A stretch of 64,000 bases of DNA from Octopus vulgaris. Lineage: Eukaryota. The first letter of the stretch is position 1. Every line of letters starts with the position of its first letter. This document shows positions 9,565 to 54,899 of this stretch, in pieces. The stretch spans positions 107,570,001-107,634,000 of the forward strand of contig OX597818.1 of the NCBI GenBank assembly GCA_951406725.2. The letters are read 5' to 3'. A program made the position numbers and the translations under genes. Under the pieces are notes generated by a model. That model was not told where the DNA came from, did not search any database, and saw nothing but the letters and a program-made list of their open reading frames with translations.

Positions 9565-10185
9565 CTATAGTAGAAGACACTTGCCCAAGGTGCCATGCAG
9601 TGGGACTGAACTTGGAACCTTGTGGTTGATTTTTAGTTCTATCATTTATCAAAAAACTATACACAAACACACAAACATATAATGGGCTTCTTTCAGTTTC
9701 CATCTACCAGATTCACTCACAAGGCTTTGGTCAGCCTGAGGCTATAGTAGAAGACACTTGCCCAAGGTGCCACGCAGTGGGACTGAACTTGGAACCATGT
9801 TGTTGGCTTTTAGTTCTATTATTTATCAAAAAACTATACACAGACACACACACATATAATGAGCTTCTTTCAGTTTCCGTCTACCAGATCCACTCACTAG
9901 GCTTTGCTCAGTCTGAGGTTACAGTAGAAGACACTTGTCCAGGGTGCCATGCAGTGGGACTGAACTTGGAACCATGTGGTTGGCTTTTAGTTCTATTATT
10001 TATCAAGAAGACTATACACAGACACACACACATATAATGGGCTTCTTTCAGTTTCCGTCTACCAGATCCACTCACTAGGCTTTGCTCAGTCTGAGGTTAT
10101 AGTAGAAGACACTTGTCCAAGGTGCCATGCAGTGGGACTGAACTTGGGACCATGTGGTTAGGAAGTAAGGTTCTTATCACACTGC

Positions 10186-17901: not shown

Positions 17902-18013
17902 CTGACTTTCCAGAGCACCTCTAGCCAAAACTTCAGAGATAACAATGGAAATGTCTTCAGGGCTCAGGATCACACACAGATGAGTAAATATCTCATCTCT
18001 TAACAGGACAAAC
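17902..18013 (-). CDS. Candidate exon of an unidentified gene (donor uncertain, 17902 or 17919)
   Basis: Strong acceptor ttttttttttaccacag|G and open frame FVLLRDEIFTHLCVILSPEDISIVISEVLAR(GALESQ). Confidence 0.3.
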
Positions 18014-18079
18014 CTGTGGTAAAAAAAAAAATTAAAAAGGCATAAAAAATTTATTATGTGATGAACAAAAAATAATTAC

Positions 18080-18795: not shown

Positions 18796-18908
<113 letters not shown>

Positions 18909-19086
18909 ATAATAAATATTAGGGAATAAATCCAAATTTACAGGAAAAAAATCAGATTTAGGATTAAATCCAATTTTATAGTAAAATATTATAAAATATT
19001 ATTAGAGACAAAACCACTATTTTACAAAACAAACAAGGAAAGACTTAATCAATACATAAAATTTTAATAAATAGTCAAAAAAACCG

Positions 19087-19129
19087 CCACTACAATTGTT
19101 TCTTGTCTTGATCGACAATCTTCAGGTGG
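19087..19129 (-). ncRNA. Minimal type I hammerhead ribozyme (left arm)
   Basis: Exact reverse complement of 24588-24630. Confidence 0.85.
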
Positions 19130-19563
19130 ACTTCCAATCTAAAATATCAATATTTTAAAATATAAAAATAATAATTTTAAAATAATTAAAGTATGAATGA
19201 AAAAATATAAATATATAATCCATATATAACCTATATATAATCCATATATAATCAATATATAAACAATATATAAACTAAAATAAACCTATCAACAATTAAA
19301 TATAAATATAAAATATAAAATATAAAATATAAAACAAAACAAAAAAATAATAATAATATAATAATAAACTATATATACACCCATACACATATAACTAATT
19401 ATATATAACCATATCTAACTACATACACTAAATCACACACCTATATATATATCCCTATACATACACATAAAAACGTCTAGGCAACTATAAATAAATAAAA
19501 TAGCTAAATACTTCAACACAATACTTATTCATACTCCCACACACACACATACAACCCACATTC

Positions 19564-21230
19564 ACGCTCTAGAAAACGGACATCACTTAAAATTATGAAC
19601 GGAGAAATGGAATAAATGGAATTAAAAATTATATTCACTTGGTAAAACGAACACTACTTAAAAATTATGAATGAAACAATGCAATAAAACAACAGACATC
19701 GCAAATAGACACAAATTACTACGAATTCCTTAACAAACCTACCATGATAAACCAAAACTCATAAAAACATATAATGATAAAATCTCCCTTTACTAAACTC
19801 TATAACATACCTATATAGCAATCCCCCTAACCTAAACATTCACACACAAATACACACACGTAAACCACACACCCACGACATATACAAATACCCACACCAC
19901 TTACACATACCTATACATACATATAAACCTCAACATATACTCCAAAAACCCACTCAACCCCACACAGACAAATAAACACAAAAATTATGAATGGATTCTT
20001 TTATAAAACTACCATGATAAGCTAAAACTCACAAAAACATAAATTATAAAACCTCCCTTTACTAAACACTATAACATACTTATATAGCAATCCCTTTAAC
20101 CTATACATTCACACACAAATACACACACGTAAACCACACACCCATAACAAATACAAACACCCACCCCACCCACACACACCCACAAGTACATATAAGCCCC
20201 AACATATACACCAAACAAAATTACTTTACCAAGGAACTTAACATATGTATAAAAAGTATAACCGCTCTGGAAACGAACATCTTTTAAAACAATGAATGGA
20301 GAAATGGAATAAATGGAATTAAAAATAATATTCACGTGGCAAAACGAACACCACTCAAAAATTATGAATGAAACAATGTAATAAAACAACCAACATCGAA
20401 AATAGACAAATTACCACGAATTCCCTAAAAAAAACCATGATAAACCAAAACTCTTAAAAACATATAACGATAAAATCTCCCTTTGCTAAAACTCTATAAC
20501 AAACCTATATAGCAATCCCCCTAACCTAAACATTCACACACAAATACACACACGTAAACCACAGACCCACGACTTATACAAATACCCACCTCACTCACAC
20601 ATACCTATACTAACTTATAAACCTCAATATACACCAAAAACCCACTCCCTCCCCACACAGACAAATTAACACATACATCCCAAAACCTAAATAACAAACC
20701 CATATACACATTCACACACAAACACACACACACGCAAAACACACACACACAACAGATACATATACTCCCTCACATATACGCATATACATACTCACTAAAC
20801 TCGATATATACAACAATATTTACACACCCACACTCATACAGATAAATAAACTATACAACTAAAAACTCACACACAATCTCATATACATAAACACTCCAAT
20901 GAAAAACAACATTAAATACATCGTAATTAACCAGAATATCAAAAATAACAATATGACATAAGGAGAAATAAAATACATACTTACAAGTCAGTTTCAAATT
21001 ATGAAGTGAAATTAAATTCTTAGCCGTTAAAAAAACCAAACCAAAATTACGTTACCATAGAAATATAACTTATGTATAAAAAGAATACGCGCCATGGAAA
21101 GTAAACGTCATTTAAAATTATGAATGGAGAAATAGAATAAATGGAACTAAAAACTATATCCACGTGGCAAACCAACACTACTTAAAAAAAATTATGAATG
21201 GATTCTTTAATAAAACTACCATGATAAATT
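19564..21230. repeat. Internal nested tandem subrepeats of the palindrome arm (mirrored in the right arm)
   Basis: Block GGAGAAATGGAATAAATGGAA..CAC.TGG.AAA at ~19600, ~20298 and ~21126. Block CCATGATAA..AAAACTC..CTATATAGCAATCCC..CACACACAAATACACACACGTAAACCAC at ~19742, ~20011 and ~20435. Confidence 0.85.
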
Positions 21231-24200
21231 ATTATATACATTTATGAGCTTTAGCTCATCTTAGCAGCTCTAACAAACAACTTGCAGTAACCCAAGTCTA
21301 TTCTCGATGCCTACCTTACTACTACACTATTCCATTCCCAAATCCAAGCAACGCTAGCCCGCCACCCGGTTACAATTCCCAACTCCACCCATTCATTCAC
21401 AATTTCAATGACGTTCGCCTCCACAGCGCTACGTATTAGCCTCAATATATACACCGGTGATTCGCTTTCACATCCGTGCGGATGGGTGAGAGTATACATT
21501 GAGTGTAGTGATGGGGCTCCCTTTACTATACACATTTGTACCTGTGTGGTAGTCTCCATGTGTATATTCACGCACGGGTATAAATGCAGGGGGTACACGC
21601 GCACGACATGTGCGTGTACCCCCTCACATGTACATATGCATGCTAGTTGGGCTCGATATGTGCAACGGTGTAATCGCGCCCGCATACATGCAGATGGGCG
21701 AATTGCACAATCAAAATACGCACACGTGTGTGCGTTCCCTGGCTGTGCAGTTCACCCATCTGGGTGTGAGTGGGTGTAAACGTATTGCTGTGGATGTCGA
21801 CCCACATAGCAATCCCAATATATTCATCCATACATGGACGCACGTGCGTGAAGCACATGCACACAACTAATACGTACAACCCCCCAATACACACTCATAT
21901 ACATACGTATCAAGCTCGACATCCACAGCAATACGTTTACACCCACTCACACCCAGATGGGTGAACTGCACAGCCAGGGAACGCACACACGTGTGCGTAT
22001 TTTGATTGTGCAATTCGCCCATCTGCATGTATGCGGGCGCGATTACACCGTTGCACATATCGAGCCCAACTAGCATGCATATGTACATGTGAGGGGGTAC
22101 ACGCACATGTCGTGCGCGTGTACCCCCTGCATTTATACCTGTGCGTGAATATACACATGGAGACTACCACACAGGTACAAATGTGTATAGTAAAGGGAGC
22201 CCCATCACTACACTCAATGTATACTCTCACCCATCCGCACGGATGTGAAAGCGAATCACCGGTGTATATATTGAGGCTAATACGTAGCGCTGTGGAGGCG
22301 AACGTCGTTGAAATTGTGAATGAATGGGTGGAGTTGGGAATTGTAACCGGGTGGCGGGCTAGCGTTGCTTGGATTTGGGAATGGAATAGTGTAGTAGTAA
22401 GGTAGGCATCGAGAATAGACTTGGGTTACTGCAAGTTGTTTGTTAGAGCTGCTAAGATGAGCTAAAGCTCATAAATGTATATAATAATTTATCATGGTAG
22501 TTTTATTAAAGAATCCATTCATAATTTTTTTTAAGTAGTGTTGGTTTGCCACGTGGATATAGTTTTTAGTTCCATTTATTCTATTTCTCCATTCATAATT
22601 TTAAATGACGTTTACTTTCCATGGCGCGTATTCTTTTTATACATAAGTTATATTTCTATGGTAACGTAATTTTGGTTTGGTTTTTTTTAACGGCTAAGAA
22701 TTTAATTTCACTTCATAATTTGAAACTGACTTGTAAGTATGTATTTTATTTCTCCTTATGTCATATTGTTATTTTTGATATTCTGGTTAATTACGATGTA
22801 TTTAATGTTGTTTTTCATTGGAGTGTTTATGTATATGAGATTGTGTGTGAGTTTTTAGTTGTATAGTTTATTTATCTGTATGAGTGTGGGTGTGTAAATA
22901 TTGTTGTATATATCGAGTTTAGTGAGTATGTATATGCGTATATGTGAGGGAGTATATGTATCTGTTGTGTGTGTGTGTTTTGCGTGTGTGTGTGTTTGTG
23001 TGTGAATGTGTATATGGGTTTGTTATTTAGGTTTTGGGATGTATGTGTTAATTTGTCTGTGTGGGGAGGGAGTGGGTTTTTGGTGTATATTGAGGTTTAT
23101 AAGTTAGTATAGGTATGTGTGAGTGAGGTGGGTATTTGTATAAGTCGTGGGTCTGTGGTTTACGTGTGTGTATTTGTGTGTGAATGTTTAGGTTAGGGGG
23201 ATTGCTATATAGGTTTGTTATAGAGTTTTAGCAAAGGGAGATTTTATCGTTATATGTTTTTAAGAGTTTTGGTTTATCATGGTTTTTTTTAGGGAATTCG
23301 TGGTAATTTGTCTATTTTCGATGTTGGTTGTTTTATTACATTGTTTCATTCATAATTTTTGAGTGGTGTTCGTTTTGCCACGTGAATATTATTTTTAATT
23401 CCATTTATTCCATTTCTCCATTCATTGTTTTAAAAGATGTTCGTTTCCAGAGCGGTTATACTTTTTATACATATGTTAAGTTCCTTGGTAAAGTAATTTT
23501 GTTTGGTGTATATGTTGGGGCTTATATGTACTTGTGGGTGGGTGTGGGTGGGGTGGGTGTTTGTATTTGTTATGGGTGTGTGGTTTACGTGTGTGTATTT
23601 GTGTGTGAATGTATAGGTTAAAGGGATTGCTATATAAGTATGTTATAGTGTTTAGTAAAGGGAGGTTTTATAATTTATGTTTTTGTGAGTTTTAGCTTAT
23701 CATGGTAGTTTTATAAAAGAATCCATTCATAATTTTTGTGTTTATTTGTCTGTGTGGGGTTGAGTGGGTTTTTGGAGTATATGTTGAGGTTTATATGTAT
23801 GTATAGGTATGTGTAAGTGGTGTGGGTATTTGTATATGTCGTGGGTGTGTGGTTTACGTGTGTGTATTTGTGTGTGAATGTTTAGGTTAGGGGGATTGCT
23901 ATATAGGTATGTTATAGAGTTTAGTAAAGGGAGATTTTATCATTATATGTTTTTATGAGTTTTGGTTTATCATGGTAGGTTTGTTAAGGAATTCGTAGTA
24001 ATTTGTGTCTATTTGCGATGTCTGTTGTTTTATTGCATTGTTTCATTCATAATTTTTAAGTAGTGTTCGTTTTACCAAGTGAATATAATTTTTAATTCCA
24101 TTTATTCCATTTCTCCGTTCATAATTTTAAGTGATGTCCGTTTTCTAGAGCGTGAATGTGGGTTGTATGTGTGTGTGTGGGAGTATGAATAAGTATTGTG

Positions 24201-24587
24201 TTGAAGTATTTAGCTATTTTATTTATTTATAGTTGCCTAGACGTTTTTATGTGTATGTATAGGGATATATATATAGGTGTGTGATTTAGTGTATGTAGTT
24301 AGATATGGTTATATATAATTAGTTATATGTGTATGGGTGTATATATAGTTTATTATTATATTATTATTATTTTTTTGTTTTGTTTTATATTTTATATTTT
24401 ATATTTTATATTTATATTTAATTGTTGATAGGTTTATTTTAGTTTATATATTGTTTATATATTGATTATATATGGATTATATATAGGTTATATATGGATT
24501 ATATATTTATATTTTTTCATTCATACTTTAATTATTTTAAAATTATTATTTTTATATTTTAAAATATTGATATTTTAGATTGGAAGT

Positions 24588-24630
24588 CCACCTGAAGATT
24601 GTCGATCAAGACAAGAAACAATTGTAGTGG
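24588..24630 (+). ncRNA. Minimal type I hammerhead ribozyme (right arm)
   Basis: CCAC (stem I) CUGAAGA (core) UUGUC-gaucaa-GACAA (stem II) GAAA C-AAUU-G UA GUGG (stem I'). All catalytic core nucleotides are canonical, predicted cleavage is after GUA (A24626), and the helix III region ACAAUUGU is palindromic. Confidence 0.85.
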
Positions 24631-24727
24631 CGGTTTTTTTGACTATTTATTAAAATTTTATGTATTGATTAAGTCTTTCCTTGTTTGTTTTGTAAAATAG
24701 TGGTTTTGTCTCTAATAATATTTTATG

Positions 24728-24760
<33 letters not shown>

Positions 24761-53385: not shown

Positions 53386-54899
53386 CATTTGTATTGGCCA
53401 TGACGCTGCTCACTATGATACAACAAATAGTTAAAATAGCTTGCAATTTGGGAAATAGTCAGATAAATCATCCCCTTTTCATGGATGATATAAAGGTTTA
53501 TGCACAAACAGAGAAACAACTTGAAAGTCTTGTACATACTATCTGCATTTTCTCAAATGAGGTAAGTATGGAATTTGGGATAGGAAACTGTGCTATATTG
53601 AAAATGAAATGAGGAAGATTTGAAAGAAGCCAGGGAAATGAAATGCTAAATAGGCTAACAATGAGTGTGGTTGAGAAAGGTATAAATACTTGGGGATACT
53701 GGAAGCAGACGAGATAAAAAAAATGAAGAAATGACACAAATTACCAGTAGGGAGTGCATGAGGAGAGTCAGAAATTTAATTCCAGTCAAAACTGAATTCC
53801 AAAAATGTTATTGAAGTAATAATTTCAAGAGCAGTACCCTTAATCAGATATGGAGTTGAAATTATAGGCTGGACCAAAAGCAATATAAAGAAATTTGACA
53901 GAAAAACTAGAAAGTTGTTGATAATGCATGGAACCCACCATCCAAAAGCTGATACCAACCAGTGAATTAAGAACTGGTGATGAAGCACAAAATAGGAGGA
54001 AAGGACAAGAATGACATACGAAGAGAGCACATCAGAAAGATTGAAGAGAAACGTCTGCATGGCCAGTTTTGGAGTGCCACAGAAGACGTAGGTGGAAGAA
54101 GAAATTCTGGGCTTGGTTAAAAAAGAGGGTAATTAAAAAAAATAGAAACAGAGAGCCTAATTGTAGCAGCCTAAGATTAAGTGATAAAAACAAACAACTT
54201 GAGAAAAAATATATATATAGAAAATATGTGTCAGAAAAGTGTTAAGTCTGTGGAACTTGGAATGAGATAGTGGCACACATTGTGACAGAATGCCCAAATT
54301 GGCACTGGAAGAATATAAGAAATGGAGTCACAACCAAGTTGTAAAAATTTTACACTGGGAACTGTGCCAGAAATGGGGATTTGAAACTGGAAACACATGG
54401 TACAATCATCGAGTGAAAAGTGTATTGAAGTTGGAGAAATGCAAGATTTTGTGGGATTTTGCTATTCAAACAGACAAGATATTAGAAAATAATCGACCAG
54501 GTATAATGATCATAGATAAGGAAAAGCGAAGTTGTTTACTTATTGACCAATCATGCCCATCTGATTCCAGAATCATAAAGAAAGAGGAAGAAAAATACGA
54601 TCCCTTAAAGTTTGAAATAGGAAGAATTTGGAGCATGCAAACAGTAATGGTCATACTTATAGAAATTGGTGCCTTGGAAACGGTAAGCCAAGATATAGAC
54701 AAAATGGCTGAGACTGGAATGCTTGGTAAAGCTTCTGCAGAAAGTTTGTCTCTTAAGGGACCGCAAGGATTATCAGGAGTGTTCTAAGCACTGGAAAGAC
54801 TGCCAAAAGTTTGTGGATACCTAAGGTTACAGGTAGTAATCCACTAACCACATAAATCCTACCAGGAATAAGACCGAACCTAAGTCAAACGAAAACAAT
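53386..54899 (+). mobile_element. Decayed R4/Dong-like retrotransposon: RT core, CCHC zinc knuckle and REL endonuclease
   Basis: INHPLFMDDIKVYA..MEFG..CA (53394..53612), YLG, C*VCG..E..AHIVTEC, HNQVVKILHWELC..KILWDFAIQTDK..NNRPGIMIID..LLID (54290..54787); several frameshifts. Confidence 0.88.

Follow-up and report, generated by a model that had tools for sequence, protein, structure and literature searches.

Does the hammerhead motif in this Octopus vulgaris locus need a second RNA molecule as its partner, as the initial annotation had proposed, or does it belong to a larger element that could supply a partner on the same strand? Our analysis of the window (the whole stretch of 64,000 nucleotides) suggested that the motif is most probably the pLTR hammerhead of a young Hydra-clade Penelope-like element (PLE); its predicted cleavage is weak and depends on a dimer, which most likely forms in cis. 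The letters of the motif are, in order, CCAC, CTGAAGA, TTGTC, GATCAA, GACAA, GAAA, C, AATT, G, TA and GTGG, which give a helix I (CCAC/GUGG), a core (CUGAAGA and GAAA), a 4-bp helix II and a palindromic helix III (ACAAUUGU). The core CUGANGA, GAAA and NUH and the open-ended helix I are those of a type I hammerhead, and the helix III sequence, ACAATTGT, is self-complementary. The pattern of helix I, core and cleavage triplet matched the genome 3,066 times and the reversed control 0 times, and the motif is thus beyond chance.

Core positions are numbered here by the standard scheme. The initial annotation had described the hammerhead as fully canonical, which holds for the core bases; position 10.1/11.1, however, is U/A instead of the G-C pair that was termed highly conserved by Cervera 2014 (PMC4209133). 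The Hydra-clade hammerheads in File S2 of PMC8557442 mostly lack G10.1-C11.1 too. For comparison, 21 subfamily variants were chosen from 62 distinct hammerhead forms. Since 10.1/11.1 is U/A in the window and unpaired in 13 of these variants, the conserved helix II is taken as 4 bp (UGUC/GACA). The catalytic core and helices I and II are invariant in all 21, with the exception of H17, and N7 and loop II differ among them. Of the stem covariation on which the initial annotation had made its reading depend, part was found: the palindrome covaries across subfamilies (ACAAUUGU, ACGAUUGU and ACGAUCGU), whereas helices I and II never vary and therefore carry none. Over the whole structure the covariation signal is weak, its score being reached by 10 of 500 shuffles, with helices I and II 100% paired and invariant and one two-sided change in the palindrome. 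A distal helix Ib (AUYG/CGRU, past a 5-nt bulge) is weakly indicated by 90.5% paired cells and one two-sided pair. The Rfam search that had been put forward as a check gave no support, as no hammerhead family matched at the gathering score in the whole window or at E<=10 within 24400-24760. The lone 43-mer does not fold better than its shuffles (z -0.48). Among older subfamilies, and in the sister family of 43% identity (L104-L108 and L117-L135), the search turned up no usable family ribozymes other than two degraded ones in L107.

Each hammerhead lies 100 nt inward from one end of an inverted repeat (Table 1), and the second copy that the initial annotation had placed on the opposite strand is confirmed. 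Relative to the full-length copy L081, the right arm begins ~740 nt past the ORF stop, so that the locus consists of two front-truncated copies arranged head to head. This arm ends in (TA)n, 100 nt past the cut site. Comparison of the two arms revealed 3 substitutions and 1 indel in 2.8 kb (99.86% identity). Neither arm has an ORF, and both share 96% identity with the 3' part of copies that bear one. The tail of the left arm likely marks a second reverse-transcription start. The same tail is predicted to fold into a 13-bp hairpin on the minus strand, a candidate protein-binding site, and the right arm carries a private variant at position 24692.

Table 1. Positions of the hammerheads, arms, exons and introns of the locus within the window.
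Feature	Position	Strand	Remarks
Type I hammerhead motif	24588..24630	+	predicted cut between A24626 and G24627
Mirror hammerhead, left arm	19087..19129	-	identical copy; predicted cut between A19091 and G19090
Right arm, 5'-truncated 3' part of the putative Hydra-clade element	21801..24726	+	no ORF
Left arm, second 5'-truncated copy	18991..21800	-	115 nt shorter at its 5' end
Tail, 83 nt, left arm only	18908..18990	-	5' UTR continuing toward the ORF start
Exon 1, 23 nt	22710..22732	+	inferred transcription start A22710, initiator-like TCACTTC
GT-AG intron, 1,846 nt	22733..24578	+	retained in the window; acceptor AG 9 nt before helix I
Mirror exon 1, left arm	20985..21007	-	mirror of 22710-22732
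Mirror intron, left arm	19139..20984	-	left arm

The parent element and its intron were both overlooked in the initial annotation. The element end is a young repeat with 1,291 candidates, and identity was 99-100% among the 40 of these that were scored. Open reading frames of 837-851 aa are present in 7 of 21 long copies, and the frame encoding a reverse transcriptase (RT) and an endonuclease is 840 aa long. Full-length copies run in the order start site, exon 1, intron, first ribozyme (HHR1), UTR (287 nt) and ORF, and past the 840-aa RT/GIY-YIG frame they continue with a long 3' region, a copy of the start site, the intron and a second ribozyme (HHR2). Ribozymes thus lie in pLTRs around the PLE frame, an arrangement seen in 17 of the 21 long copies. 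The RT domain is followed by a C-terminal GIY-YIG endonuclease within one ORF, as in the Hydra clade. The protein carries the motifs DKT, RxxWKA, GLYRDD, CxCx5C, a C-terminal YIG, CxxC and CRH (instances are RIKWKA, SDKT, CTCRDKSNC, CYLC and CRH), and these motifs are common to its 20 database relatives, 13 of which were aligned. The RWK motif, the change of DKG to DKT, insertion into (TA)n, the inverted truncated copy and the tail are all Hydra-clade traits, and CCHH is absent from the protein by eye in the alignment. The element protein is 35% identical to P0006, and P0006 in turn, compared by eye, is a near match to Hydra-2_Amil from the Craig et al. 2021 supplement (PMC8557442). On the basis of these motifs and of the match to P0006/Hydra-2_Amil, the element is almost certainly a Hydra-clade PLE, a placement made from the motifs and a pairwise match. 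Its ribozyme spacing (6,310 nt in L081) exceeds the length of <3 kb that is typical of, and not diagnostic for, the clade. Neither the element protein nor four other proteins gave a match in Pfam.

Two further features of the coding sequences were observed. Residues ~490-600 of P0001 (L039:4056-6578) form an Asn-rich in-frame stretch, absent or much shorter in the 13 aligned relatives, which recalls the N-rich inserts described for Adineta Penelope ORFs (PMC3846280). A second Hydra-like family (L117:1962-4847 and L118:5174-8053) has open frames of ~960 aa, 43% identical at the N-terminus, and descriptors found no hammerhead in it within the 10 kb taken.

The initial annotation had proposed that this palindromic type I ribozyme pairs as a dimer, and structure prediction agrees. 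Helix III of the monomer has only 2 bp and a predicted pairing probability of 0.03, while two minimal copies co-fold as a double hammerhead at -22.0 kcal/mol (versus 2 x -6.5 kcal/mol), with intermolecular helix I and III probabilities of 0.91-0.99. In longer context, the helix I probability is 0.00-0.15 for the monomer and 0.00-0.35 for dimers with flanks, in which the hammerhead fold is weakened. Among the 21 variants, palindrome pair 3/6 is AU in 14, GU in 4 and GC in 3. This pair cannot form in the monomer across a 2-nt loop, and the compensatory series therefore supports the dimer. Taken with the predicted folds, it makes a dimeric hammerhead highly probable.

The location of the partner is a separate matter. 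Analysis of the long copies indicated that 17 of 21 carry a second ribozyme on the same strand within the 10 kb taken, with a unit of ~6.3 kb; these copies were selected as the best matches to the ribozyme-ORF junction, so the fraction is not a genome-wide rate. Pairing in cis is therefore open to the element family, and we lean towards cis over trans, across a span of ~6.3 kb. The initial annotation was right that a single-arm transcript of this locus holds one sense ribozyme. Its conclusion that dimerisation must occur in trans is not supported, because 17 of the 21 long copies have two ribozymes on one strand and the window holds a truncated insertion product; the argument holds only for transcripts of the truncated window locus. 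Outward transcripts from the locus are possible, as both arms keep the start site.

To map the 5' ends of genomic copies, we located breakpoints in 85 copies, obtained from the first 100 of the 1,143 listed. Of these breakpoints, 49 lie at 24550-24587, nearly all at 24579-24584, and most of the copies continue upstream as 22710-22732, which defines the GT-AG intron of Table 1. Exact junctions counted genome-wide gave 465 spliced and 430 unspliced copies, with 0 for controls. About half of the end copies lack the intron exactly, and the element was therefore likely copied from its own spliced, forward-strand message. Of 48 spliced copies, 4 use an alternative donor 4 nt further on, at 22737; sister subfamilies keep the intron, and their donor is the one at 22737. 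None of the 48 spliced copies extends past 22710, and these mini-copies are 170-250 bp long and stop at the start site. All five spliced copies that reach 22710 carry an extra G where the genome has C. An extra 5' G is the usual trace of cap copying, and this G is likely the cap. We infer that transcription by RNA polymerase II begins at A22710, with capping of the RNA; a sense, capped RNA template is very likely. Separately, exon 1 was considered as completing helix I after splicing (GAAACUG/CGGUUUU), a pairing that folding disfavours and that sister subfamilies do not keep, and the idea was rejected. The sole upstream ATG of the spliced leader opens a two-codon ORF at 24660-24668, 3' of the ribozyme.

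The 3' ends of genomic copies fall in (TA)n at one of two fixed positions, 100 or ~183 nt past the cut site, namely at 24726 or after a further 83-nt tail. Pairs of copies were counted over the range fully covered by the spliced list (80 sites) and the unspliced list (100 sites). The 47 head-to-head pairs comprise 26 with both arms unspliced, 21 with both arms spliced and 0 mixed, and a same-strand tandem makes up 1 of 48 close neighbour pairs and spans 6 kb. In 21 of 23 distinct pairs (one locus had been entered twice, giving 24 rows), just one of the two arms bears the tail.

Traces of cleavage were read from the breakpoints of the first 100 of the 1,389 listed copies anchored at their 3' end. 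Splice-junction breaks account for 46 of them, and 22 break further upstream, 7 in 24645-24662 and 10 later. A break in 24627-24644 occurs in 13 copies, versus 2 in 24588-24626, one of the two being L114, whose break at 24626 overlaps the cut site by one base. The nominal p of 0.001 is too favourable, because paired arms are non-independent and the 13 include a deletion (L294). Five clean junctions fall exactly at G24627, and the exact-site junction pattern gave 4 matches, versus 0 and 0 at two control offsets. The copy L114 begins at the cut site, bears an ORF and keeps HHR2. Partial cleavage by the hammerhead in vivo is somewhat more probable than not, although the pile-up could be RT stalling at the foot of the structure; the ribozyme would cut only a fraction of the templates, on the order of one in six.

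A replication route that would account for these copies may be outlined as follows. A capped transcript would start in the upstream repeat, with HHR1 close to its 5' end and, 6.3 kb further on, HHR2, and splicing would be confined to the cap-proximal copy of the intron. The element protein would nick (TA)n and prime reverse transcription internally, at two sites immediately 3' of a ribozyme, and one priming per DNA strand would give head-to-head arms with the tail on one. Priming in the 5' repeat would run to the cap and yield dead, spliced mini-copies, while priming in the unspliced 3' repeat would yield long, intron-keeping copies such as the one in the window. Because priming in the 3' repeat keeps the intron, intron inheritance would be explained. 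Ribozyme cleavage would not be needed for insertion; for PAc in vitro, internal RT starts that define the tail, priming at two sites 3' of the ribozyme on one target strand each, and insertion without cleavage have been described (PMC11167929). That the copies record such a PLE cycle in all its parts, with sense capped templates, cap-proximal splicing, one RNA primed twice and a dimer-dependent cleavage of a minority, we consider to have an even chance.

Several other readings bear on the ribozyme itself. If the locus were transcribed outward from both arms, identical RNAs could pair in trans through the palindrome and cleave. Start site, exon 1, intron and ribozyme are indeed present in both arms, two spliced leaders co-fold with a palindrome pairing of 0.68-0.74, and the genome holds thousands of solo copies. 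Full-length copies, however, offer a partner in cis, spliced leaders were mostly copied uncut, and the layout is that of an ordinary insertion product as described in PMC8557442, which leaves outward transcription with trans cleavage unlikely. More plausible, yet still the less probable reading, is that in vivo the motif cleaves seldom or not at all and acts as a structural or RNA-dimerisation signal, the truncations being due to RT stalling. At least 68 of the 100 listed copies pass the ribozyme, so templates are mostly intact, and the fold is weak in context; published results point the same way, with minimal hammerheads (min-HHRs) of PLEs cleaving poorly in vitro (PMC4209133) and hammerhead mutants still inserting (PMC11167929). 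A signal that does not cut accords poorly with a core that is invariant in the 21 subfamily variants while adjacent positions drift, and with clean junctions at G24627 that are lacking at the two control offsets.

Other readings concern the origin of the copies. Self-priming on an antisense transcript, a hypothesis found in PMC3846280, predicts unspliced head-to-head copies such as those of the window, but 21 of the 47 head-to-head pairs are spliced at the sense GT-AG in both arms, spliced copies end at the sense start and bear an additional G there, and spliced and unspliced copies have the same two 3' ends. Sense splicing, the sense start and the common 3' ends thus allow one sense mechanism to cover both classes of copies, and antisense self-priming appears quite improbable, although no observation speaks against it for unspliced copies taken alone. 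The absence of an ORF from the window and the SINE-like spliced mini-copies of 170-250 bp might recall a non-autonomous retrozyme, and the metazoan non-LTR retrozymes (bioRxiv 10.64898/2026.07.22.740005; PMC7229834), as described, resemble the octopus ribozyme in being type I, dimer-requiring and PLE-related. The octopus element, unlike them, shows no short, tandem, non-coding monomers each with a hammerhead and derives directly from an ORF-bearing element. The 96% identity of the arms to the 3' part of ORF-bearing copies refutes the retrozyme reading for the window, same-strand tandems are limited to the single 6-kb pair, and the mini-copies lack the upstream promoter region and the intron; for the element as a whole this reading is very improbable. 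It is equally hard to credit that the 5.8-kb palindrome is an assembly artefact from a fold-back long read, which the near-identity of the arms (99.86%) might suggest: the arms show four differences, a 115-nt central offset and a tail on one arm only, and the listed part of the genome holds 47 similar pairs with equal asymmetry.

Comparison with known systems revealed the closest likeness to the Hydra clade (Hydra-2_Amil, Hydra-1_Obim and Penelope-13_HM; PMC8557442), as far as it is described there. The octopus element shares its RWK-type motif, DKT, CxCx5C linker, C-terminal GIY-YIG with CxxC and CxH, (TA)n target and inverted, 5'-truncated copy with a one-arm tail, and File S2 of that study shows the hammerhead ~100 nt from the 3' end and an extra base on each side of helix II. 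The octopus element differs in its unit of ~6.3 kb (1.1-3.0 kb in the 27 Hydra families listed there), its tail of 83 nt (versus 30-40), its N-rich ORF insert, unlike those families, and its 1.85-kb repeat intron, none being noted for Hydra in PMC8557442. Its protein start differs from that of Hydra-1_Obim, and it is therefore another family. The minimal hammerheads of metazoan PLEs in PMC4209133 likewise combine a short helix I, a palindromic helix III and a predicted dimer with low expected activity, and they also occur as opposite-strand pairs and as solo copies from truncated elements; their helix II is 7-8 bp, compared with 4 bp and no G10.1-C11.1 pair in the octopus hammerhead, and the octopus copies, unlike them, record spliced and probably cleaved templates.

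The end of the Drosophila virilis intron adjoins helix I (PMC4209133), as it does in the octopus element. According to Schostak et al. 2008 (PMC2377424), the D. virilis Penelope also has an internal initiator start in the pLTR, a short first exon, an intron before the ORF and spliced transcripts. Its intron is 75 bp, versus 1,846 bp here, and its genomic copies are said to keep the intron, in contrast to the octopus end copies, about half of which are spliced. The Poseidon element PAc of Anolis (Frangieh et al. 2024, PMC11167929) has two internal RT starts downstream of the hammerhead and uncut RNA as the main template, like the octopus element. PAc belongs to a different clade, and its ribozyme overlaps the ORF start, while the octopus ribozyme lies ~270 nt upstream; no RNA ends at the cut site are reported for PAc in that study, whereas some octopus genomic copies start there.

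The ribozyme itself is an expected part of a Hydra-clade element. Dimeric PLE hammerheads, opposite-strand pairs, inverted copies, tails and a pLTR intron beside helix I are published, and the origin of the opposite-strand layout in the insertion mechanism is already in print for PLEs (PMC4209133 and PMC8557442). Neither spliced, cap-marked genomic PLE copies nor the concordance of splice state between arms was found in the literature searched, on which subscription papers and supplements may bear. Section 15 of PMC8557442 and related papers leave intron keeping, head-to-head formation and hammerhead action in vivo as open points, and an antisense template has been proposed for PLEs in PMC3846280. 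In a young, high-copy family, counts of genomic copies offer a test of each of these three points. Here they speak for a sense, capped, mostly uncut template, for position-dependent splicing and for partial cleavage, which, if true, would explain PLE intron retention without an antisense template. The intact protein and the defined RNA sites also provide material with which a Hydra element could be studied in vitro for the first time.

Additional features were observed in and around the locus. The right arm contains internal direct repeats of 190-420 bp with 80-89% identity (23044-23454, 23737-24152, 22495-22681 and 23325-23507); the intron is enlarged by duplication, and repeat units are lost or gained in some full-length copies. 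A host transcript across 18916-24726 would form a near-perfect 2.8-kb hairpin, a likely substrate for editing or small RNAs. A polypyrimidine tract followed by CAG at ~18012-18035 (minus strand) could be a host splice acceptor, and no host exon was recognised near the insertion. Elsewhere in the window, there is a 177-bp tandem repeat at 9566-10159, and fragments at 269-604, 1512-1781 and 54266-54784 resemble LINE reverse transcriptase or endonuclease frames. In other loci, L107:7695-8778 (minus strand) holds four tandem units of ~361 bp, each with a variant-core hammerhead-like motif, in a retrozyme-like arrangement. Unrelated hammerheads of other families lie at L104:1035 (-), L131:290 (-) and L119:8304 (+), and the L104 hammerhead combines G10.1-C11.1 with a perfect 8-nt palindrome.
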